64,000 nucleotides of DNA from Spirochaetia bacterium. Lineage in GTDB: Bacteria; Spirochaetota; Spirochaetia; SZUA-6; Bin103. The stretch covers positions 1,920,001 to 1,984,000 of the forward strand of contig CBDAOI010000004.1 of the NCBI GenBank assembly GCA_965198005.1. Direction: 5' to 3'. The notes beneath the pieces were generated by a model. That model saw only the letters and a program-made list of their open reading frames with translations. It was not told the origin of the DNA and ran no database searches. Numbering within the stretch: position 1 is the first letter of the stretch; the number at the start of each line of letters is the position of its first letter. The position numbers and the translations under genes are program-made. Positions 18,686 through 52,772 of the stretch are shown piece after piece.

Positions 18686-18939
18686 ACTTTTTCGAACCGA
18701 CAAACAACTAACCGCTCCGGCTGATCGCCGCGTACGCGAAAACGCGCACGCGGGCGCCTTCACCACCGCCGTAGCTATAGCTATCGGTTGCGCGGGCTCG
18801 GTCCATCGCCAAACCGGCATGCGGACCGGCCACGCCCTTCCCGGCGATCGCAACCGTCCCGGATCCTCGCCGGCGACTGACTGCCGGCAAAGCTCACCAC
18901 CGGCGTTGCCGGCCGCGAGGCACCCCGACGTGAGGAAGA

Positions 18940-19151
18940 AGGAGGTCAAGATGATACTCAAAGAGCCGCACGTGCGCGCGGCGTGAGCCCGGGTGAACCC
19001 GGATGAGTCACACGCCGCGCGCTCTTATTGTACGTGACTCAGACTGGCAGTCCGCGTTGGCGGGCGCGCCCGCGTTGCGGTGCGCGAGAGTAGCCAGGGA
19101 GCGGCAATCCGCTCCGCAATACTCTCAAGAATACATTTATGGGAGAAAACC
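18940..19151 (+). promoter_or_regulatory. Structured 5' leader with uORF MILKEPHVRAA (18951-18986), candidate cis-regulatory RNA
   Basis: Conserved with 48610-48818; stems show compensatory changes. Confidence 0.65.
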
Positions 19152-20983
19152 ATGGATTATATCGTACGCATTACAAGGACCTTCGCGGTTGCGTTGGTCC
19201 TCGCCGTGACCGCGCCCGGCCTCTGGGCCACTGGCGCAGAGGAAGACGCGACCGCCGCTGACAAGCAGTATGTGACCGACCCCGTCACCGGCAAGGAGGT
19301 GACCGCGCCAGAGTATGGCGGGACATTGACCTTCGCCGATCGGGGCAGATGGCGTTCGGCTCCTATGACCATGTATCATGGCCATGCATTGAGCCAACAA
19401 CAGTGTCGTCATAGAGAAACTGGGCGTCGCTGACTGGGCAATAGATAGGAAGAGATATCCTTTCGTCGGCGGCTACCAGCTGCCTGTATACGCCACGAGG
19501 GGGGCGCTGGCTGAAAGCTGGGAACAGCCCGACCCCACAACGTATGTCTTCCACATCCGCCAGGGTGTCCACTGGCATGACAAGCCGCCGATGAACGGTC
19601 GGGAGCTCACCGCCAAGGACATCGAGTATAACTTTCACCGGCACTTGGGTCTGGGCAGCGGCTTCACCGAACCTTCCCCTTGCTGCGTAGGGTTCCTCGG
19701 AGAGTTGCCTTGGGAATCGATAGAGGCCACCGACGAATGGACGGTTGTCATGAAGCTGAAGAAGCCCACCCTTCTTGCCCTGGGCACCATCTTGGACGGA
19801 TTCTATGCGATACAGCCCCCCGAAGTAATTGAGGCATCAAAGACTGCTGAAGTGCCAGAGGGCAAGATTTCGGACTGGAGGGACATGGTTGGCACCGGGC
19901 CCTACATGAGAACCGACTGGGTCGGGGGCAGTTCTTATTACCTACACCAAGAATCCCAACTACTGGAGCGACGACGAAAAATATCCGGGGAACCGCTTGC
20001 CCTATATTGACGAGCTAAGGAGCCTTGTTATGACCGAAGTGGCAACAGAGCTATCGGCACTGCGCACGGCTAAGGATCGATGGCATAGGTTGGCAGGGGC
20101 GAATGCACAATTAAGCTCCCTGGACCAGGCAGAGAGCCTCGAGCGCACTAACCCAGAGCTCGTAATTCACGCGTGGTCAGAACGGTCGAATAACAATTTT
20201 TGGCTCAACGAGAGCAAGCCGCCCTTTGACGACATCAGGGTGCGCCACGCAATGCAGATGGCACTTGACGTCGAGACAATGAGCGCGACCTTGTACAAGG
20301 ATTTAGGAGATCCGATACCTCGCGGGCGAGTAGGCCTGGAATTCACGGGGTTTACGTCCCATTTGACGAGTGGCCCGAACAGCTCAAGGGATACTATACC
20401 TATGACGTGGCGGGGGCCGAGAAGCTCCTTGATGAGGCTGGGTATCCGCGCGGCGCCGACGGCATGAGATTCGAAGACCAATCATTGTGTGGCTCGACAT
20501 CGCGGTGATTATGATATTAACTATGCAGAATTAATGCCGTTTCATACTGGCGTGAGATTGGCATTCATGTCGACATCGAGCACACTCCCTGGGGCTGAAT
20601 TCGGTCCCAGAGCGCAAGATCGGAAATGTTGGAGGTTTCGTGTGGCCCGCCGGCGTCAAGGCTTTTCCAGTTCAGGTCAAATGGAAACATTTTCGAGCGA
20701 ATATGTCTGGAACCCCAGGCAGCGACGCGCAATACGACGCCTGGTATGAAGAGATGCTAGCTGCTGCCACTGAGGAGCAGCAGATGAGCGCGATCAAGAA
20801 GCTGGACATGTACAGCATAGAGCAGCACTGGATGATCTGGGGGGCCTTGGCCCAGCGTTCAACGTGCACCAGCCGTGGGTGATAGGCTACAACGGCGAAG
20901 GCGGTTTCGGTAGAAGTCGAAATAATGATGTCTTCGCCCGCCTCTGGATTGATAGTGCGCTGAAGGAGGAAATGGGTCATTAG
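19152..20983 (+). pseudogene. Family-5 SBP, full length, multiple frameshifts
   Basis: Signal peptide through LWIDSALKEEMGH*, spread across several reading frames. Confidence 0.85.
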
Positions 20984-21017
20984 GGGGTTCACCCCTTGTG
21001 GCTGACCTTGCGGAAGA

Positions 21018-21052
21018 AGGGAGCTGGGGGCTGAAGAGCCCCCCAGCTCCCT
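21018..21052 (+). terminator. Strong GC hairpin after SBP (stabiliser or terminator)
   Basis: AGGGAGCTGGGGGCT-gaag-AGCCCCCCAGCTCCCT; no U tract. Confidence 0.45.
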
Positions 21053-21155
21053 CATGGGAAACCGCGAGGTGCGCGGTTGAAGCGCAGGCAGTGCGAGACC
21101 ATAAGCTGGACCCGCGGGAGCACCTTCGAGGGATAAGGCACCTCGGTTGCGTCAC

Positions 21156-40865: not shown

Positions 40866-41083
40866 GCCAATACGAGGGTACCACGGTCGTAGTTACGATG
40901 TCAATACACGACGGGTGAGGAGCGGTGAGGAGCACGCCTTCCATTAGGGACGATCTGTTCTGCCACGATCTCTTCTTTCAGATAGGTGAGGGCATAGCCG
41001 CGCAGATACGCCACTGGGCGAACAGGTCGCCTTCGATCACGTCCTGGAACAGAAACTCAGCACCGCGGAGCCGATCCGAAAAG

Positions 41084-41428
41084 TGGAGGTGGCGGGAATC
41101 GAACCCGCGTCCTGAGAGGTGCACCTGCGGCGTCTACAGGTTTAGCCGGCTGTTGTTTGCTTGGCGACGCCTTGGTGAGCCGACCAACCGGCGCCGGTGC
41201 AGCCCGCTGTTTGAGTTTCCCGCCGCACCCGCGAGCCGATGTGGCGGTGAGTTCTGAATTGCGTCGGGGTTGCTCGTCGCTCAGGACCGCACTTCAAGTC
41301 CCCGTGGCTACGTTATCAGGCAGCCAGTGCTAGATCTGTTTCGGCAGATCAAAAGTTCCAGGTTAAGGAGACTGGGCTCCACCTGCAGCCGCAAACATCA
41401 ATCTCTCAGTCGAAGCCAGGTCACCCCC
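41084..41428 (-). ncRNA. ssrA: tmRNA; predicted tag (A)AETDLALAA at 41316-41345
   Basis: 5' GGGGGTGACCTGGCTTCGAC; 3' GCGGGTTCGATTCCCGCCACCTCCA; adjacent to smpB. Confidence 0.93.
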
Positions 41429-43741: not shown

Positions 43742-44734
43742 GTGAGAGACGGCACAGCATCGGACCGGCGGCACGCACTGGTGACCGGCACCGAGCGGTT
43801 CCTGACTTGGCGGCGGCGGCGCAACCTGCGGCGCCGGGCCCGCCAACAGCAGAAGAACCCCATCCTCGACTGGGCCGAGGCGATCGGGTCCGCGATCGTG
43901 ATCGTCCTCATCATCAATCAGTTCCTGCTCCAGGCCTACCAGATTCCCTCCGAATCGATGGTGCCCACGCTGCTCGTCGGCGACCGGATCTTCGTCAACA
44001 AGGTGATCTACGGTCCGGAACTGGTGCCGGGCGCGGTCAAGCTGCCCAGTCCGCGCGCACCGCGCCGCGGCGAGGTGATCATCTTCGAGAATCCCACCTA
44101 CGTGCCGATGGGGCCGCTGATGGACCTGCTGCAGCGGGTGATCTACATGGCCACGCTGTCGATCGTGAACATCGACCTCGATGAGCAGGGCGGGCAGCGG
44201 GTCCACTTCCTGATCAAGCGGGCGATCGGGATGCCGGGGGATCGGGTGCGGGTGCGCGCCGGCGACGTGGAGATCAAGGTCGGCGGCCGCGGACCATGGA
44301 TGGCGGAGCGTGAGGTGATGGAAGAGCTGGGACTGCCGTACAACGTTTCGCGTCTGTTTCCCCGCGACGGCTATCCCGACCTGCGCCGCGCCTCCGTGAT
44401 CCGGGTGCGCGCCGCGGCCGGCATGGAGGTCAGCGCGGCCGACCGGCAGGCGCTCGAACGGATTCAACGGTTGCGCAAGCTGGACCACACCTTCTCGAAC
44501 GCATGGATCGCGCGCGCGCGGTACGAGCTCGATCCGCACAACCAGGCGCTGGCGCGCGACTGGAGCCGCTTCGAGCACGGCTGGCTGGTGCCGGCCGGGA
44601 CGGTCATGCCGATGGGGGACAACCGCGACGATTCACGCGACGGCCGTGACTTCGGTCCGGTCAGCCTGGACCAGGTGCTCGGCCGCGGCCTGTTTCACTA
44701 CTGGCCGCCGTCGCGCTGGGGCAGTGTCCGGTAG
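43742..44734 (+). CDS. lepB: Signal peptidase I
   Basis: IPSESMVPTL, LIKRAIGMPGD, MGDNRDDSRDGR. Confidence 0.92.
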   Translation: MRDGTASDRRHALVTGTERFLTWRRRRNLRRRARQQQKNPILDWAEAIGSAIVIVLIINQFLLQAYQIPSESMVPTLLVGDRIFVNKVIYGPELVPGAVKLPSPRAPRRGEVIIFENPTYVPMGPLMDLLQRVIYMATLSIVNIDLDEQGGQRVHFLIKRAIGMPGDRVRVRAGDVEIKVGGRGPWMAEREVMEELGLPYNVSRLFPRDGYPDLRRASVIRVRAAAGMEVSAADRQALERIQRLRKLDHTFSNAWIARARYELDPHNQALARDWSRFEHGWLVPAGTVMPMGDNRDDSRDGRDFGPVSLDQVLGRGLFHYWPPSRWGSVR

Positions 44735-44759
44735 CGCTTCCGCGCCGACGACGCGGACG

Positions 44760-46067
44760 ATGACGGCGTTCGCGCTCTACGTGCACGTTCCGTTCTGCGC
44801 CGCACGCTGTGGCTACTGCGACTACCCCGTGCTGGTGGGCGCCCCGGAGCAGGCGGCCGGCTTCGTCGCCGCGGCGCTGGCCGAGGCGCGGGCGCTCGCG
44901 CAGGCGCTGGCGGGGCGGCCGCTGGCCGCGGTCTACGTCGGCGGCGGTACCCCGACCTGGCTGCCGCGCCCGGCGCTGCGCGCGCTGCTGCACGGGCTGG
45001 CCGGAATCGTGACCACGCGCGCGGCCGGCACCGGCGCCGGCCACACCGCCGCCGCGCCGGTCGAGTGGACCCTGGAAGCGAATCCCGAGGACCTGGACCG
45101 GGAGCTGCTGGAGATCTGCGCCGGCGCCGGCGTCAACCGGCTGTCGCTCGGCGTCCAGTCGTTCGAGGACGCCGTGCTGCTCCGGCTCGGACGGCGTTGC
45201 CACGGTCCGGACCTCGACGCGCGGCTCGACCTGGTGCTGAACCGCTGGACCGGACGCCTCAACCTCGACCTCCTGGTAGGGGTGCCGGGCCAGGCAGGCC
45301 CGGCGGTGGCGGCGGCGGTCGATCGGGCGGCGGCACTGGGTATCGGCCACGTCACGCTGCTGCAGCTCACCGACCCCGGACCCGGCGGCCCGCAGCCGGC
45401 CGCCGACGCCGACCAGCTCTGGCTGACCGGGTATGAGCGACTCCGCGCGCACGGCTTCCGCCAGTATGAGGTGACCCACTTCGGACTGGCCGGCGATCGT
45501 TCGCGCTACGTGTGTCATACGCTGCAGCTCGTGCCGCTGGCCGCGGTCGGTCCCGGAGCGGTCGGACTCCTGCCGGAGGCCGCGGCCGCGCTCTATCCGG
45601 CCGCGGCCCCCGGCCGGACGCTGCAGCCGCAGCGCGTGACGCATCCGCCGGCTCTGGCACCCTACGTCGCGGCCGCCGGCCGCGGGTGGGGAGGGTGCGC
45701 GGCCCCGGTACCGCCCGCCGACCTGCTCATGGACCACTTGGTGCACGGGCTGCGGCTGGCCGCCGGCGTGCGCGTAAGCGACGGCGCACGCTGGTTCGCG
45801 CCGTCACCGGCCGAGCTGCTCGCCGCACCGTGGCGGGAGTGGGTCAGGCGCGGTCTGGCGCACCCGGCCGGGCGCCGGCTGGCGCTCACTGCCGACGGCC
45901 TGCTCCAGGCCGACCGCCTCACCACGGAGGCGCTGGCCACCCTCGAGGAGGGACCCGCCGTCCGCTACCGTGCCGCCGCCTGGCCGGATGCCGCCCCGGC
46001 GCCCCGGCCAGCGCCCCAAAACCGTCGTCCGGGGCGCCGCTCTTGGCCCATCCCGTCCGTCCGCTAA
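44760..46067 (+). CDS. HemN/HemW-like radical SAM protein
   Basis: YVHVPFCAARCGYCD, GGGTP, EANPE, RLSLGVQSF. Confidence 0.85.
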   Translation: MTAFALYVHVPFCAARCGYCDYPVLVGAPEQAAGFVAAALAEARALAQALAGRPLAAVYVGGGTPTWLPRPALRALLHGLAGIVTTRAAGTGAGHTAAAPVEWTLEANPEDLDRELLEICAGAGVNRLSLGVQSFEDAVLLRLGRRCHGPDLDARLDLVLNRWTGRLNLDLLVGVPGQAGPAVAAAVDRAAALGIGHVTLLQLTDPGPGGPQPAADADQLWLTGYERLRAHGFRQYEVTHFGLAGDRSRYVCHTLQLVPLAAVGPGAVGLLPEAAAALYPAAAPGRTLQPQRVTHPPALAPYVAAAGRGWGGCAAPVPPADLLMDHLVHGLRLAAGVRVSDGARWFAPSPAELLAAPWREWVRRGLAHPAGRRLALTADGLLQADRLTTEALATLEEGPAVRYRAAAWPDAAPAPRPAPQNRRPGRRSWPIPSVR

Positions 46068-46236: not shown

Positions 46237-46749
46237 CTAAAGGGCGGACTCGAGGTCGCTCAATCGTGCCAACAGGACCAGCGGGTCGATTGGGGACTGC
46301 ACCAACCCGCAGTCCAGGTAGAAGCATCGGGCACGCTCGTTCAGCGCGTGGACGAGAACGGCGGCGACCCCGATTTCGTTGGCGGCGGTTCGGACCCGAA
46401 CCAACGCGTCTCGCACCAGTGCACGGCCGACCCCCGCACCTTGCTCGGCTGTTGCAACGGCCAAGCGCCCCAGTACGACGGCCGGGATCGGATCGGGCAC
46501 GTTGCGGTGGATTCGACCGGGTGCTTGGCGGTGATCGATAGCGCCTTCCGCCAGTGCGTAATAACCCTGGACGACGTGCCCGCGGCGAACCACGAAGGTG
46601 CGCGAGGCGCCGGAAAACTGGTTGGTCTTGGCCCGACGGATGAGCCAGTAGTCGAGGCTCGCCACGCCGCATTGGAACGCCTCGACCCGATGGGTGTCGC
46701 GGAGTTGCTCCGGTGGACCGAGAGGATGCCAATCAACGGCTAATCCCAC
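46237..46749 (-). CDS. GNAT toxin (TacT/AtaT-like)
   Basis: FQCGVASLDYWL, GYYAL, PIPAVVLGRLAV..QGAGVGRALV, VHAL..FY. Confidence 0.88.
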   Translation of the reverse strand: MGLAVDWHPLGPPEQLRDTHRVEAFQCGVASLDYWLIRRAKTNQFSGASRTFVVRRGHVVQGYYALAEGAIDHRQAPGRIHRNVPDPIPAVVLGRLAVATAEQGAGVGRALVRDALVRVRTAANEIGVAAVLVHALNERARCFYLDCGLVQSPIDPLVLLARLSDLESAL

Positions 46750-46895
46750 GGCGCCGCGGTTCCGAGCACCCGCTTGAGATTCTCGTTCGGCTTAGGCGGT
46801 GCGTCGAGGAGCTGCATGAACGCGTCAAACCGGTCGGAGTCCACGCGCAACAGGACGCGATCAAGCAGCGCGTTTTCGGCCGCCTGCCTCGCCAC
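46740..46895 (-). pseudogene. DUF1778 (TacA-like) antitoxin, N-terminus replaced by IS DNA
   Basis: ARQAAENALLD..FDAFMQLLDAPPKPNENLKRVL..APWD*. Confidence 0.8.
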
Positions 46896-48157
46896 CACCA
46901 CGACATCCTGCAGACCGCCATCGTCCACCCCGACAAGCGGCAGGTGCTGCCGTTGGCTCCCGGGTTCATTCACAACGCCGATGACTCTGGCGCCAAGAGC
47001 GCCAAACGCCGCAAGCAGGACTGTGAACTAAAAGCCGGCTACCGTGCCGTGCAGCGCATCCGTAACGACCATCCCCGGCTGGCTACGGTGATCGTCGCCG
47101 ATAGTCCGTGCTCCAAGCAACCGTTCATCGAACAGGTGCGCGCCGCCCGCTTCTCGTTTCTGCTGGTGGCCAAGCCGGAGGATCACACCAGCCTGTACCA
47201 GGATATCGACGGGCTGCGCCGCGGTCGGCTGCTGGACCACCGCTGCACCATCGACGCGACCGGGGACCGGCATGAATACGAGTGGGTTACCGGGGTGCCG
47301 CTGAACGGCAACCCCCGCAGTCCCCAGATCAACTTCGTGCACTACCGCATCGTACGGGCCGGCACGACCACCTATCAAAACGCCTGGGTGACCGACTTGG
47401 TGCCCACCGCTGGAAGCGTCGCGCGGATCGTGCGTGCGGGACGGGCACGCTGGAAGATCGAGAACGAGGGGTTCAATACGCTGAAGAACCAGGGCTATCA
47501 CCTGGAGCACAACTTCGGCCACGGTGACAAGTACCTGTCGGAGGCGTTCTTCCTACTCAACCTGCTGGCCTATTTCATGCACCAGATATTCGAGCTGGTG
47601 GACGGTCTGTATCAGCAGGTGCGGGCTGGGTTCGGGTCGCGCCGGGAGTTCTGGGGCGCGATCCGCGCCACGTTCCGGCTATTCCTGTTCCCGTCGTGGG
47701 ACCAGGTGCTGGTGCGGATGAACTCGCCGCCGCAGCCGCTGTCCGGGTAGCCGCTCCCTGGAGAACTGAACCTGCTCCCTGAACGATCCCTGACGAGGGC
47801 CGCGGCGCAGGTGTGCCGGCCGCGGCTGAGCACCGCCCCCGAAGGCCGATCGCCGCACCGCGCCAGCCCGCGGAATCGGCCGACCGGCGGTGGCTGACGG
47901 TGGTCAGGTCATCGCACCGGGCTGGCTTGACGGTGGCTAAATACATCACCTGCAATCAGTTACAGAATTTCTTCCGGGTCGGACCGTGCATTCACTCGGT
48001 GGGCCAACAGGTGGGCATGGTCGCGTTTCACACTCGGAGGGCTTGAGCTTATGACAGGGCTTGCGGTCTCGCCCTCAAGACTATTCTGCTGTAACCTTTC
48101 GGCCCCCAATGTTGCATTACTGTTTATGATGCTCTGCTGCTCCCCGAGAATTGCTGA
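46893..48157 (+). mobile_element. Right part of an ISNCY-like IS: transposase C-terminal fragment (to 47750) plus terminal repeat
   Basis: KQDCELKA, GRARWKIENEGFNTLKNQGYHLEHNFGHG; CCGAGAATTGCTGA at 48144-48157. Confidence 0.8.
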
Positions 48158-48260: not shown

Positions 48261-48359
48261 CTTACCGACTTACCGACTTACCGCGCGCCGCTAGCGGCTC
48301 AGCCAACGCCCGGCAGCCAGCCGCGCGGCAGCCAGCCGCGCGGCAGCCAGCCGCGCGGC
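48261..48359. repeat. Short tandem repeats (CTTACCGA x~3; CGGCAGCCAGCCGCG x3)
   Basis: Direct read. Confidence 0.85.
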
Positions 48360-48609
48360 GCCGGTGCTGAGCGCGGCACCATTGATCCGTGTGGCGCACA
48401 GCCGCCACGCGTCCGTGCGTCCAACGGCCGACCTGTTGGCCCGCAAACTGATACCAGTCCACACCTGCATGCGTAGCGACGTGGCCGGAGCGAGAAGGGG
48501 CGCGGCTGTGCGCGACCATACTCGTGGGCCACAGATGCGCGCTAAGCCGTGGCAGCGGCTCGGCGATCGCCGGGCCACCGTTCTGTCAGAGGAACCTGTA
48601 GCTCAAGAG

Positions 48610-48818
48610 AGGAGGTGCAAAATGATACTCAAAGAGCCGCACGCGCGCGCGGCGTGAGCGGGGGGAACCCGCTGAGTCACACGCCGCGCGCTTTCAGTGT
48701 AATTGACTCAGACTGGCCGTCCGCGTTGCGGGCGCGCCCGCTGTTGCGGGCGTCAGAGTAGCCAGGGAGCGACAACTCGCTCCGCAATACTCTGGAGATA
48801 ACATTTAAGGAAGACACG
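48610..48818 (+). promoter_or_regulatory. Structured 5' leader with uORF MILKEPHARAA (48622-48657), candidate cis-regulatory RNA
   Basis: Homologous to 18940-19151, with co-varying stems. Confidence 0.65.
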
Positions 48819-50660
48819 ATGAAAAACTTTTTGACACTGACCTTCGCGGTTGCGTTGGTCCTGGTTGTGACCGCAACCGGCCTCTGGGCCGGCGGTGGCA
48901 CGGAAGAGGAGCCGCTAGCGGCGATGGAGAAGGAAATGGTGCGCGACCCAGCCACCGGCATGATGGTAACGGCACCAGAGTACGGCGGGACATTGACCAT
49001 GTCCAAGTCGGGTGGCTTTCCTCCGACTACTGACCCGTATTTTTCCGGGGGCTGGGCCGGCCACAGCCTGCTCCATGGTACTCTAGAGTTTCTAAGCATT
49101 GCCGACTGGGCAATAGATAGGGACCAATTGGACTGGTCAAGTTTTGCCGTTCCTCTATCTGGCTTAAGAGGGGCGCTGGCGGAAAGCTGGGATATTTCCG
49201 AGGACGGGCTCACCTATACCTTCAACATCCGCCAGGGCGTTTACTTCCACGATAAGCCACCGGTGAACGGTCGGGAGATGACTGCCAAGGATGTCGAATA
49301 TACCTTTCACCGCAATCTTGGAAATCGATTGACAGGGACCGAATTCTCCGAAGCCGAACCTACCCCCGACCTCCGTTGGCAGGGGTGGGATACGATGCCG
49401 ATCGAATCGATAACAGCAACGGACAAATGGACGGTTGTTTTTAAGCTGACGCGGCCAGACGCCCGTGCGCTGCGGGGTATCATCTCCCCTTCAGTTCACT
49501 TAATTGTTGCACGAGAGGTAATCGAGGAATACGGTGACATGAAGGATTGGAGGAACGTGGTCGGCACCGGACCCTGGATGCTGACTGACCTTGTCGAGGG
49601 CAGCTCTATGACCCTTACCAAGAATCCTAACTACTGGAGCGACGACGAAAAATACCCGGGGAACCGCTTGCCCTATGTTGACGAGTTCAGGGTTCTGGTT
49701 ATGCCAGAAGCGGCAACACGAATTGCGGCACTGCGGTCGGGTAAGATCGATTACGCCGGCGCCGCGCTCTCCTCTCCTGTCCTCGACAGTATCGACAAGG
49801 TGGAGAGCATGCAGCGGACCAACCCCGAAATCGTGATATGGGAGCATATAATACGGCAGAACTCTAGTTTTGGCATGAACACGCAGAGGGCGCCCTTTGA
49901 TGACATCCGGGTGCGCAAGGCTATGCAGATGGCACTGGACCTTGAGACACTGAACGAGACCTACTTCAAAGGGTGGGGAACGTGGGGACCTCAGGGACTG
50001 ATTGCCAACGATGTCCCACTGGCTGGCACCCCATTCGAAGAATGGCCCGACGAGGTCAAGAAAGGCTATAGGTATGACCCGGCAGGGGCGGAGGAGCTCC
50101 TTGATGAGGCGGGGTATCCGCGCGGGGCCGACGGCATCAGGTTCAAGGCCCATTTGGTCTGGTTTGACAAGCAAGATCCGAGCTTTATAGAATTACTAGC
50201 CGCTACGTACTACCGTGACATTGGCGTTGATGTAGAGATTGAGCTAGTGCCAGGTCCGGAATATAATCCTAGAAGGAAAGCTAGAGATTGGGACATGCTG
50301 ATGACCATAGCGGCCGACACGGGGTCGTCGCCGCCTTGGAACGCCATGGCTAGGTACAAGACTGGTGCTGATAATAACACCGCCAATGTGAACGATCCGG
50401 CTTATGACGCCATGTTGGCAGCCGCCGAAAAGGTAAGCACGGAAGAAGAGCAACTGCTTTTGGTGAAAGAGCTGAATATGTACGCAATAGAGAGGCACTG
50501 GACCGTATTTGCTGGTAATGTAATACCGTCGACGACCGTGACCCAGCCGTGGGTCAAAGGTTATAACGGAGAATTGAAACTGGGAGGTAACCATTTTGAA
50601 TATACCATCGCCGCCCGCCTCTGGATCGACCAGGAGCTGAAGGAGTCGATGGGATTCTGA
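48819..50660 (+). CDS. ABC transporter substrate-binding protein, family 5
   Basis: Signal peptide LWAGGG, YGGTLT, LAESWD, GTGPW, PFDDIRVRKAMQMALD. Confidence 0.92.
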   Translation: MKNFLTLTFAVALVLVVTATGLWAGGGTEEEPLAAMEKEMVRDPATGMMVTAPEYGGTLTMSKSGGFPPTTDPYFSGGWAGHSLLHGTLEFLSIADWAIDRDQLDWSSFAVPLSGLRGALAESWDISEDGLTYTFNIRQGVYFHDKPPVNGREMTAKDVEYTFHRNLGNRLTGTEFSEAEPTPDLRWQGWDTMPIESITATDKWTVVFKLTRPDARALRGIISPSVHLIVAREVIEEYGDMKDWRNVVGTGPWMLTDLVEGSSMTLTKNPNYWSDDEKYPGNRLPYVDEFRVLVMPEAATRIAALRSGKIDYAGAALSSPVLDSIDKVESMQRTNPEIVIWEHIIRQNSSFGMNTQRAPFDDIRVRKAMQMALDLETLNETYFKGWGTWGPQGLIANDVPLAGTPFEEWPDEVKKGYRYDPAGAEELLDEAGYPRGADGIRFKAHLVWFDKQDPSFIELLAATYYRDIGVDVEIELVPGPEYNPRRKARDWDMLMTIAADTGSSPPWNAMARYKTGADNNTANVNDPAYDAMLAAAEKVSTEEEQLLLVKELNMYAIERHWTVFAGNVIPSTTVTQPWVKGYNGELKLGGNHFEYTIAARLWIDQELKESMGF

Positions 50661-50857
50661 CGCAACGCCTGCGGCGTTGACTGAATCAATCGCCCTACGG
50701 GCGATTGAAACGGGAGTCGCTGCGCGACTCCACGAGCGAGTTCGCCGTAGGCGACTTAGCGTTTTCGCGGTCGTTCTGGCTGCATAGAAGGGCGCCGGGA
50801 GGCGCCGGGAGGCGCCGGGAAGCCCGAGGCTTCCCGGCGCCCATTTACCACGAAGAT

Positions 50858-51865
50858 ATGAGAGCGTACATCATCAGGCGTTTCTTGCTGGCAATCCCCA
50901 CCCTGTTTATATTGAGCATCCTGGTCTTTCTCTCGGTCCGCTTCCTCCCCGGCGATGTAATAGACGCAATGGCGAATAGGATGCAGTCCGAGGGCCTGGC
51001 CATCGAGATTGACCGTGAAGCTTTTGAGCGTATGCTGGGATTAGACGTGCCTGTGTACGTGCAGTATGGACGCTGGATAGGAGTGTTGCCGACCCCTGAC
51101 TGGTTTACCGGTGAGTCCCACTTTAAAGGTCTCCTGCACGGCACCCTTGGCGAATCATGGATGTTTGGCGGTTTTTCGATAGAGGAGAGGATACTCGGTA
51201 GATTGCCGCTAACCATTCAGCTTGGTGTCATGGCAATCGTAATCGGGCTCGTCATAGCGCTGCCGGTCGGCATCTACTCGGCGATTCGCCAGGATACGGC
51301 TGCCGACTACGCGGGGCGCACCATCGCCATCATCGGCCTGGCCACGCCCAACTTCTGGTTGGCCCTGATGGTCATGATCTACCCGGCAATCTGGTGGGGC
51401 TGGACGCCACCGATGGAGTGGGTTCCTTTCACCGAAGACCCGCTGGGGAATCTCGGGGTGCTCATCATACCCGCCGTGATTCTGGGGACGGCCATGGCTG
51501 CAGGCACAATGCGGTTGACACGCACCATGATGCTGGGGGTGCTCAGGCAAGACTATATCAGGACTGCCTGGTCAAAGGGCCTCAGTGAGAGGGTTGTCGT
51601 GGTGAGACACGCCACAAGGAATGCCCTCATCCCGGTGGTTACGTTGATGGGCATGCAGTTGCCTCTGCTGGTAGGTGGCTCCGTTATCATGGAGAACATA
51701 TTTAACCTGCCCGGCTTAGGTCGTCTCTTTCTGACTTCACTCGAAGGCAGAGATTACCCTGTGGTCTCCGCAGTAAACCTGGTTTTCGCTACGGTTGTTG
51801 TGGGGGCGAATCTCATCATCGACCTGACCTATCCCTACCTCGACCCGAGGGTCCGTTATGAGTGA
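50858..51865 (+). CDS. ABC permease, DppB/OppB-like
   Basis: MRAYIIRR, QDYIRTAWSKGL, RDYPVV. Confidence 0.92.
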   Translation: MRAYIIRRFLLAIPTLFILSILVFLSVRFLPGDVIDAMANRMQSEGLAIEIDREAFERMLGLDVPVYVQYGRWIGVLPTPDWFTGESHFKGLLHGTLGESWMFGGFSIEERILGRLPLTIQLGVMAIVIGLVIALPVGIYSAIRQDTAADYAGRTIAIIGLATPNFWLALMVMIYPAIWWGWTPPMEWVPFTEDPLGNLGVLIIPAVILGTAMAAGTMRLTRTMMLGVLRQDYIRTAWSKGLSERVVVVRHATRNALIPVVTLMGMQLPLLVGGSVIMENIFNLPGLGRLFLTSLEGRDYPVVSAVNLVFATVVVGANLIIDLTYPYLDPRVRYE

Positions 51866-52772
51866 AGCCACAGGGGTATCATCATCAGTAATTGCGCCGA
51901 AGAGACGTACCGGGCTGGCTGATTTCTTCATCAGACTGTGGAGAGAGAAGCCACTGGGTACGATCAGCGGGATTATCATATTGCTGTTTATCTTTGTTGG
52001 TATCTTCGCCGATGTTCTGGCTCCCTATCCGTATGATGAGCCACACATACGTGACATGATGAAAGGCCCGTCAGCCCAGTATCTCCTCGGTACGGACCAG
52101 TTGGGGCGAGACTCATTGAGCCGCATCATCCACGGGACTCGTACTTCGTTGCTCGTCGGTCTGGCCACGACCGCTCTTGGTGTCGTGATCAGCACCCTGA
52201 TCGGCGGCACTTCGGGGTTCCTGGGTGGCAAATTGGACCTGGGTGTGCAGAGATTTGTCGACGCCTGGATGTCTTTCCCGGGACTGCTCCTGTTGTTGAC
52301 GATCATGTCTATCGTTGGGCGGGGTGTGCCACAGATAATACTGGTGCTGGGGATAGCAGGAGGCATCGGCGGCTCGAGAGTGTTGAGAGGCGCCGTTATC
52401 GACATCAAAGAGAATGTGTATTTCGAGGCGGCAGAGGCGATCGGCAGCTCAAAATGGAGAGCATTTATCCGACATGTCGTCCCCAATATCATGCCTGTCA
52501 TAGTCATCGGATTCAGCATCAACATCGGAGGCGTAATCCTGAGTATTGCATCTCTGGGCTTCCTCGGATACGGCCTGCCGTTCACGATTCCTGAGTGGGG
52601 AGGTCTGCTCAGCCGGGAAGGGCGTGAGTTCATGGAGATAGCGCCACGGCTGGCTCTCTGGCCCGGTCTTGCCCTGACTATTACCGTTTACTGTCTCAAC
52701 ATGTTCGGCGATGCGATGCGCGACCTGCTCGACCCGCGGCTGCGGGGCGGTGGCGGGCGGCCGGGTGCCTAA
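51858..52772 (+). CDS. ABC permease, DppC/OppC-like
   Basis: LGTDQLGRD, RHVVPN, GDAMRDLLDPR. Confidence 0.92.
   Translation: MSEATGVSSSVIAPKRRTGLADFFIRLWREKPLGTISGIIILLFIFVGIFADVLAPYPYDEPHIRDMMKGPSAQYLLGTDQLGRDSLSRIIHGTRTSLLVGLATTALGVVISTLIGGTSGFLGGKLDLGVQRFVDAWMSFPGLLLLLTIMSIVGRGVPQIILVLGIAGGIGGSRVLRGAVIDIKENVYFEAAEAIGSSKWRAFIRHVVPNIMPVIVIGFSINIGGVILSIASLGFLGYGLPFTIPEWGGLLSREGREFMEIAPRLALWPGLALTITVYCLNMFGDAMRDLLDPRLRGGGGRPGA

Follow-up and report, generated by a model that had tools for sequence, protein, structure and literature searches.

Directly upstream of a gene for a family-5 solute-binding protein (SBP), a Spirochaetia bacterium (GCA_965198005.1) carries a conserved block of about 210 nucleotides, and the question raised by this locus is whether the block is a regulatory RNA and, if so, of which kind. 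The DNA analysed, referred to as the window, is a stretch of 64,000 nucleotides (CBDAOI010000004.1, positions 1,920,001-1,984,000 of the forward strand); window positions are used throughout. The host belongs to a sponge-associated spirochaete lineage. The original prediction described the block as a non-genic, structured RNA element occurring in two copies, each in front of an SBP paralogue, and interpreted it as an RNA-level switch. Both copies, here termed copy A and copy B (Table 1), were confirmed in front of their SBP genes. They are 86% identical over the aligned stretch, the identity starting about 15 nt 5' of a conserved ATG and running into the SBP coding region, and all the motifs described for them were found at their positions in both. 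The double compensatory differences between the distal stems of the two copies were likewise confirmed: where copy A has C-G as the outer pair and A-U as the inner one, copy B has G-C at both places. Either the SBP paralogue that follows copy B is broken, or its sequence carries indel errors of the long-read assembly. The window also contains a radical SAM gene (44646-46067) and, about 870 nt 5' of copy A, an ORF (46713-47750, plus strand) with a weak, sub-threshold match to a DDE transposase (PF01609, E = 5.6e-4, 20.1 bits against a cut-off of 23).

Table 1 Features of the leader and of its surroundings. Positions are those of the window, except where a locus name precedes them.
Feature	Position	Strand	Remarks
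Shine-Dalgarno (SD) AGGAGG of leader ORF, copy A	48610-48615	+	copy-to-copy conservation starts here
Leader ORF MILKEPHARAA-stop, copy A	48622-48657	+	
P1, 12-bp GC helix	48645-48656 with 48680-48691	+	spans 48645-48691
Optional inner hairpin inside P1	48657-48673	+	AGCGGG 48657-48662 with CCCGCT 48668-48673
GAGUCA within P1	48674-48679	+	DNA motif TGAGTCA 48673-48679
UGACUC	48704-48709	+	complement of GAGUCA 48674-48679; DNA motif TGACTCA 48704-48710
CUGGC	48713-48717	+	complement of GCCAG 48761-48765 in the P4/P5 internal loop
Two small GC hairpins, CCGC-GTT-GCGG and CGCCCGC-TGTT-GCGGGCG	48721-48751	+	one only in most copies
Distal domain	48754-48794	+	P4 48754-48760 with 48788-48794; P5 48766-48772 with 48777-48783; internal loop GCCAG / GCAA
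A-rich spacer, SBP SD and SBP start codon	48795-48821	+	SD AAGGAAG 48807-48813; start codon 48819
Family-5 SBP gene, 613 aa	48819-50660	+	Pfam SBP_bac_5, E = 1.3e-72
Two ABC permease genes (OppB/OppC-like)	50705-52772	+	operon of the SBP gene; Pfam BPD_transp_1, OppC_N
Copy B leader	18940-19151	+	SD 18940-18945; P1 18974-18985 with 19011-19022; TGAGTCA 19004; TGACTCA 19035
Copy B leader ORF MILKEPHVRAA	18951-18986		
SBP paralogue behind copy B	19152-21100	+	homology spread over frames 1, 2 and 3
RF02005 example	L201:3112-3331	-	adjoins leader at L201 ~3369 (+)

The element is by no means restricted to two copies. A blastn search of the own genome (4.9 Mb, four contigs, 90% complete) returned 89 matches, which were merged to 83 copies. 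In 80 of them an SBP homologue lies directly downstream on the same strand, which rules out random placement, and the remaining three are truncated leader fragments. A MITE, which had been named as a possible refutation, is at odds with a placement that is fixed to gene starts and to one strand. Eleven of the 80 SBP-linked copies, including copy B, exhibit frame changes or short homology, and 70 of the 83 copies are followed by a same-strand ORF of at least 485 aa that starts between -47 and +74 nt from the end of the match. Homologues of the two permeases of the window follow 79 of the 83 copies, indicating that the operons are complete. The block is best explained as the central part of a 5' leader cassette that is common to this whole family of Opp/Dpp-type ABC importer operons. 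One SBP_bac_5 subfamily occupies roughly 160 loci in this genome (tblastn, E < 1e-40, a rough merged count), and with about 80 complete operons bearing the leader this is a very large transporter expansion.

With regard to the non-genic nature of the block, it is indeed a strand-specific, position-fixed 5' element, but a leader ORF that appears to be translated and that overlaps the 12-bp stem had been overlooked. This ORF was analysed in an alignment of 86 copies, to which the own genome contributed 67 of its 83 copies and relatives contributed 19; the 16 own copies omitted are truncated, are devoid of the distal stem or the ORF pattern, or contain long insertions. The conserved block begins with GGAGG, followed 5-7 nt further on by the ATG. 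An SD-like motif at most 16 nt upstream of the start is present in 85 of the 86 copies, and identity among copies climbs from about 0.32 to 0.62 across the last 10 nt before the ATG. The start codon is ATG in 83 copies, GTG in two and TTG in one. The ORF usually exhibits 11 codons (68 copies) and less often six (MILKEP-TAG, i.e. Pro-stop, 15 copies). Within codons 2-6, differences at codon positions 1, 2 and 3 amount to 10, 7 and 65, respectively, and 62 variant cells are synonymous versus 17 non-synonymous, with only 10 of the 45 possible single changes being synonymous; the cells counted in these and all other tallies are related copies and not independent events. Variation returns with a period of three bases (CTC/CTG, AAA/AAG, GAA/GAG and CCG/CCT/CCC/CCA). 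Codon 7 is free, with His in 60 copies, a stop in 15, Tyr in five, Trp in two and other residues in four; after MILKEP, the ORF either stops or continues with five codons that range from variable to constrained. Judged from the alignment, this pattern is the signature of an ORF that is probably translated and of which the first six residues matter.

With its codons 8-11 and the first two stop-codon bases, the leader ORF supplies the 5' arm of P1. As this arm is kept even where the ORF stops earlier, it is retained for the RNA or the DNA rather than for the peptide. No tandem identical regulatory codons were found in MILKEP across the 86-copy alignment. The rare codon AUA was considered as a sensor and rejected, ATA representing 29.5% of the Ile codons in the SBP genes. 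Another candidate, in which the leader ORF is the tail of a long upstream gene, was likewise rejected. In 43 of 71 copies the frame stays open for 100 codons or more 5' of the ORF, but this stretch has no codon signature: its GC contents at the three codon positions are 0.68, 0.66 and 0.68, compared with 0.58, 0.42 and 0.64 in the SBP genes, and its diversity by codon position is 0.21, 0.24 and 0.22. Upstream modules are also shared between copies, and in one upstream class (class B) the stretch is antisense to an intron reverse-transcriptase gene.

The DNA upstream of the block had been described as differing between copies. This holds for copies A and B; among all copies, however, the adjoining 100 nt 5' of the SD can be sorted into sequence classes, each of which is common to several copies over at least 100 nt. 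A module located 100-400 nt 5' of the leader ORF, open in the ORF frame and without codon signature, is conserved in 29 of 71 copies, including copy B (18740-18900). In one of the upstream classes, the sequence is that of a group II intron 5' end in antisense orientation, for which matches to Rfam RF02005 (182-186 bits) are located directly 5' of the leader on the opposite strand. RF02005 (group II intron D1-D4) has 34 matches in the genome, 11 of which adjoin a leader according to a comparison of coordinates. The GTGCG end of the intron touches the complement of the leader SD AGGAGG, and one intron contains reverse-transcriptase sequences split over two ORFs (Pfam RVT_1, E = 5.6e-22 and 1.5e-5). 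The SBP ORFs behind the intron-adjoined leaders are intact; together with the abutment of the intron on the SD, this points to the SD as the beginning of the functional unit. The antisense strand of the conserved SD may be a homing site for the introns. A further group II intron D1-D4 match, at G000:C4:1652259-1652483 (plus strand, 169.5 bits), is one of about 14 copies with identical scores, suggesting a young and active intron family.

At the RNA level, both window copies are predicted to fold stably, with -97.7 kcal/mol (z = -3.9) for copy A and -102.4 kcal/mol (z = -4.7) for copy B; none of 200 shuffled sequences folded as well in either case. Pairing was counted on the 86 sequences for P1, the inner hairpin, GAGUCA/UGACUC, one small hairpin and the distal helices P4 and P5. 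The result of this covariation analysis is divided: 95.3% of the cells pair, compared with 30-60% when the partners are slid, but covariation is weak. Two-sided changes occur at six pairs and in 14 cells, compared with 6.0 +/- 2.1 cells in shuffles (none of 500 reached 14), and the covariation score is 0.060 versus 0.055 in shuffles (reached in 2 of 500), whereas the number of further pair types is indistinguishable from that in shuffles (118 of 500). The weakness of the covariation is due to the fact that the sequence hardly varies.

The helices are not all equally constant. P1 pairs in 98.7% of its cells, with zero two-sided changes. The inner hairpin is missing in 11 of 82 distinct sequences, and 15 of 61 classified copies have the small middle hairpin twice; where counted as a single small hairpin, 98% of its cells pair, as C-G, U-G or U-A. 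P4 pairs in 92.8% of its cells and the four apical pairs of P5 in 97.5%, the apical pair occurring as G-C (48), G-U (24) and A-U (5). The predicted complementarity of TGAGTCA and TGACTCA is borne out by their GAGUC/GACUC core, which pairs in essentially all copies, and the CTGGC/GCCAG pairing also holds (0.99 of cells, two further pair types, zero two-sided changes). A scan for further helices returned this CUGGC/GCCAG pairing and GUUGCG/CGCAAU, both nearly invariant, so that no covariation signal is possible for them. Among single-base departures, G.U exceeds A.C both in pair types (22 versus 15) and in cells (135 versus 34), which mildly favours an RNA of the plus strand; transversion mismatches account for 38 pair types. 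The loops are conserved as strongly as the stems. Based on these models, the fold is plausible and stable, and covariation does not prove it. In the predicted structure, UGACUC at 48704-48709 may pair with GAGUCA either as a pseudoknot with P1 or as an alternative hairpin once P1 opens. At the DNA level, TGAGTCA and TGACTCA may contain GANTC methylation sites.

The view that the block belongs to no known riboswitch class is consistent with Rfam 15: a search of 48500-48900 at E values up to 10 gave a best score of 17.5 bits against a threshold of 50, and on six further loci only a group II intron upstream of one leader was found. At gathering thresholds, the whole window yielded only a tmRNA gene (41081-41428, minus strand, RF00023, 134.7 bits). 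No canonical terminator was detected in the leader including P1, either in the consensus or in the two window copies, and no canonical promoter was found in or before either window copy. The sole terminator-like site is on the minus strand, upstream of copy B; at least three U directly follow the P1 stem in about 18 of 61 classified copies.

Conservation of the leader is high in relation to that of the genes behind it. Among 55 copies (1485 pairs), the median identity is 0.84 for the leader, 0.50 for the SBP protein, 0.63 for the coding DNA and 0.58 for third codon positions, and leader identity stays level while the SBP proteins diverge. Bins of the leader are 0.78-0.97 identical, with a variable linker at 0.59, about 0.32 upstream, and a renewed drop just 5' of the SBP start; identity then remains at 0.7-0.9 for about 180 nt into the SBP gene before falling. 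The first 60 or so SBP codons are conserved among paralogues, with third positions at 0.64-0.79 compared with first and second positions at 0.76-0.90, a pattern of ordinary protein-level selection. The leader mostly equals or exceeds the best-conserved first and second codon positions of the SBP genes (0.90).

A different picture emerges from orthologues. Pairing of the relatives' loci with the own SBP genes gave 16 putative pairs. Five distinct pairs with 93-99% identity in the coding DNA (codons 61-400) reach only 86-94% in the leader, and in three directly aligned pairs several differing parts stand beside an almost identical remaining gene. Differences affect the upstream module, the type of leader ORF (with an early stop or long), the optional hairpins, the segment with the SBP ribosome-binding site (RBS) and about the first 20 codons. 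Such orthologous loci are homologous from the SD onwards, but not upstream of it. Within the genome, five leader features, whose classes were set by simple word rules, assort freely: all 10 feature pairs exceed the combinations permitted by a recombination-free tree, as illustrated by upstream class and RBS segment, which occur in 19 combinations against a maximum of nine. As near-identical orthologous SBP genes of sister species carry different leader variants, the 5' cassettes are mosaic and exchanged between operons by recombination. Such exchange amounts to concerted evolution, which explains part of the uniformity; recombination and concerted evolution can account for much of the leader similarity without selection on each base. 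Both selection and frequent recombination, which shuffles the modules, contribute to keeping the leaders alike. More generally, very high conservation of a non-coding block can stem from concerted evolution instead of structural constraint.

Gene families of comparable architecture exist in other bacteria. The variable lipoprotein genes of Mycoplasma and the upstream homology box families of Borrelia are recombining families with a conserved 5' region and signal peptide. The present family resembles them in its conserved 5' non-coding and signal-peptide region before divergent mature domains and in the exchange between loci. In contrast to these surface antigens of pathogens, it comprises nutrient-binding proteins of a symbiont, complete ABC operons and a leader ORF that is probably translated.

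The leader was found in one genus of metagenome-assembled genomes (MAGs), the relatives' records being titled Spirochaetia. A covariance model of the 5' module (107 positions, at most 150 candidates scored per genome) gave 81 matches in the own genome and 57, 41, 31, 30, 5, 1 and 1 in seven of ten same-genus genomes; it gave none in the three other same-genus genomes and none in 13 sister-genus genomes, and blastn of 17 further genomes of the order returned nothing convincing. An exact 19-mer scan of 185,579 species genomes produced at least 58 entries. Among the matches listed, 51 are in MAGs titled Spirochaetia bacterium and seven carry other titles; one of these seven, a MAG titled 'bacterium', has a true full-length leader (116 bits), and the other six were discarded as chance hits to the GC hairpin alone or as no match (at most 20 bits). 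Leaderless genomes exhibit one SBP of the subfamily, with 43-44% identity and an unrelated upstream region. Genome G007 exhibits about 25 such SBPs, some of them with a different leader class. This second class (L135 and L138), about 200 nt 5' of the SBP genes, comprises an SD and a start-stop mini-ORF (ATG TAG or GTG TAG), TAACCGGCC as a threefold tandem repeat in one copy, an analogous distal stem GAGAGC/GCTCTC, and then AAGAAGGAGAG-ATG. The presence of an SD and a start-stop at the equivalent place points to ribosome loading as the shared feature.

The locus is also contained in sponge metatranscriptome runs from two studies. Contigs of RNA libraries match the unique upstream DNA with zero mismatches at 48357-48576 (X3) and 48439-48576 (X1), and zero-mismatch contigs at 48547-48634 (X1, X3) bridge the 5' edge of the leader. 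A one-mismatch contig from the second study (X5, 48494-48615) reaches that edge. Such contigs give no RNA ends, strand or level and may reflect DNA carry-over; stretches that lack cover in X1-X3, upstream of about 48282, were given no weight. As the contigs reach at least 129-250 nt 5' of the SD, the RNA probably does not begin at the SD, unless processing occurs at that site.

Based on these results, we tentatively interpret the leader as a ribosome-dependent leader-peptide control element common to the transporter family, not as a metabolite riboswitch, and rate the chance that this is correct at a little under even. In this mechanism, a ribosome that translates, pauses or terminates on the leader ORF would melt P1, and the fold would then toggle from P1 to the GAGUCA:UGACUC hairpin. 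Expression of all these operons could thereby be coupled to translation status, for example to amino-acid supply. Constrained folding of 53 copies is in keeping with such a toggle: once a ribosome footprint covers the 5' arm of P1, this helix gives way in the prediction to the GAGUCA:UGACUC hairpin, which holds the 3' arm of P1 in its loop, while the downstream hairpins are unchanged across the three modelled ribosome states. Sequestration of the SBP RBS by the leader was rejected as an output, the unpaired probability in the 53 copies being 0.50 for the free RNA, for a ribosome at the leader stop and for a ribosome at the Pro codon. In these models, the output therefore does not seem to pass through occlusion of the SBP RBS; it would most likely be transcription read-through, either hairpin- or Rho-dependent, or mRNA stability.

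In favour of leader-peptide control are the SD and the coding signature, the coincidence of the ORF end with the 5' arm of P1, the predicted hairpin toggle, and Rho, which was found in the genome. Also counted in its favour are the copy number and fixed placement, the constraint on the leader, the stable fold with its excess of G.U departures, the RNA-library contigs at the 5' edge and the start-stop class of G007. Against it are the equally open RBS, the lack of a detected terminator and of a codon run, the weak covariation, the 38 transversion-mismatch types and the share of recombination and concerted evolution in the similarity, as well as the limits of the RNA-library contigs. The 11 intron-abutted copies bear on where their operons are transcribed from; they are ambiguous and were counted against leader-peptide control.

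Classical attenuators offer the closest frame of reference. In the trpL, pheL and pyrL attenuators, the 3' part of the ORF overlaps a hairpin arm, and the position of the ribosome determines which hairpin forms. The leader shares with them a short ORF with its own SD that overlaps one arm of a stable hairpin. In contrast, it has no run of identical codons, no canonical U-tract terminator was found, it is present in about 80 copies per genome, and its peptide comprises only 6-11 residues. In the leader of the tna operon, TnaC ends with Pro-stop next to a Rho site. A short leader peptide, Pro-stop in 15 of the 86 copies and Rho in the genome are common to both, whereas 68 of the 86 copies read on for five codons. 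The leader thus exhibits two features of leader-peptide attenuators, namely a coding-selected short ORF with an RBS and, as a prediction, the overlap of this ORF with mutually exclusive hairpins. As tandem regulatory codons and a canonical terminator were not found, it was not assigned to the attenuator or tnaC-type leaders.

Further likenesses were drawn from comparison papers (PMC13285730, PMC5737220, PMC4191407). According to PMC4191407, the BmrB leader peptide controls the BmrC/BmrD ABC transporter by ribosome-mediated transcriptional attenuation. The present leader would similarly encode a peptide 5' of ABC transporter genes and act through the ribosome. Unlike the family studied here, which encodes importers, BmrCD is an exporter encoded at a single locus of a firmicute and induced by ribosome-targeting antibiotics. 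Known uORFs of mRNA leaders also combine an upstream RBS with a short ORF that modulates a downstream gene, as is proposed here. Those uORFs overlap the main RBS or are close to it, whereas about 160 nt of structured RNA separate the end of the present ORF from it.

The alternative that survives best is a constitutive expression cassette that senses nothing: ribosomes loaded on the mini-ORF, together with the hairpins, would shield the mRNA from nucleases or Rho and ensure strong SBP translation, and recombination would spread the cassette and keep it uniform. The A-rich SBP RBS, open in all modelled states, is compatible with this alternative, as are the sister leader class of G007, which has only a start-stop, the variation of the leader ORF between 6 and 11 codons, and the mosaic modules swapped between operons. 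A precedent is offered by the hbs mRNA of B. subtilis, in which, according to PMC5737220, initiating ribosomes at a strong SD block RNase J1. Nevertheless, conservation of MILKEP at the amino-acid level is needless for mere ribosome loading, and the RNA-library contigs extending 129-250 nt or more 5' of the SD do not fit an RNA that begins there, unless it is processed. We consider such a cassette unlikely, though it deserves to be kept in mind.

The idea of an RNA-level switch in the form originally put forward is supported by the stable fold and the placement 5' of SBP operons, but not by the search for an output: no terminator was found and the SBP RBS is sequestered in no modelled state. 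Given the weak covariation, the lack of a canonical terminator and the RBS open in every modelled state, a switch of the riboswitch type is not demonstrated. A structured RNA that binds a ligand or protein, with the loops GACUGGC, GCCAG and GCAAUAC serving as a pocket or as tertiary contacts, would nevertheless explain why unpaired segments are conserved as strongly as stems, and it is consistent with the stable fold, the possible tertiary pairings CUGGC/GCCAG and GUUGCG/CGCAAU, and the lack of a match to a known family. In contrast, such an RNA is difficult to reconcile with the weak covariation, with inner hairpins that are optional or duplicated, and with the failure to find an expression platform, the RBS being 0.50 unpaired throughout and no terminator being detected. 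In addition, one common ligand would be needed for about 80 transporters with very different binding domains. As for a protein, binding of CsrA to GGA motifs was rejected, since CsrA (PF02599) was not found in the 90%-complete genome. This alternative therefore appears quite improbable.

The weakest alternative, a mainly DNA-level role as a recombination or gene-conversion tract and mobile-element target that re-assorts upstream promoter modules and transporter genes, with the fold incidental to GC-rich inverted repeats, would account for the orthologues with near-identical coding sequences and different leader modules, for their homology starting at the SD, for the module pairs exceeding the tree-allowed combinations and for the 11 antisense introns at the SD edge, but it is very improbable in view of the third-codon-position pattern with the kept SD and start codon, which indicate selection on translation, of the fixed strand and distance to the SBP start, and of the excess of G.U over A.C departures on the plus strand.

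Leader-peptide control and the exchange of modules could also be combined. In this joint reading, which is unlikely to be right in every part, the nascent MILKEP peptide and the GC helix would form a ribosome-sensing switch in front of about 80 importer operons, allowing one translational signal to set uptake for the whole cell, and the cassette would at the same time be a recombination module that re-assorts control modules and transporter genes and into which group II introns home. The literature searched on spirochaetes and sponges, uORFs and start-stops, STAB-SD, and leader-peptide ABC transporters contained no description of the element, and 'MILKEP' returned zero papers. What is new relative to this literature is the combination of a mini-ORF with the signature of translation, a conserved fold, module shuffling between operons and possible intron homing at the edge of the leader. 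If the leader is regulatory, few cis-acting control elements would be as highly multiplied within a single bacterial genome, since about 80 copies precede about 80 complete operons; it would also offer a simple way to approach how an uncultured sponge symbiont controls a set of transporters that takes up several percent of its genome.
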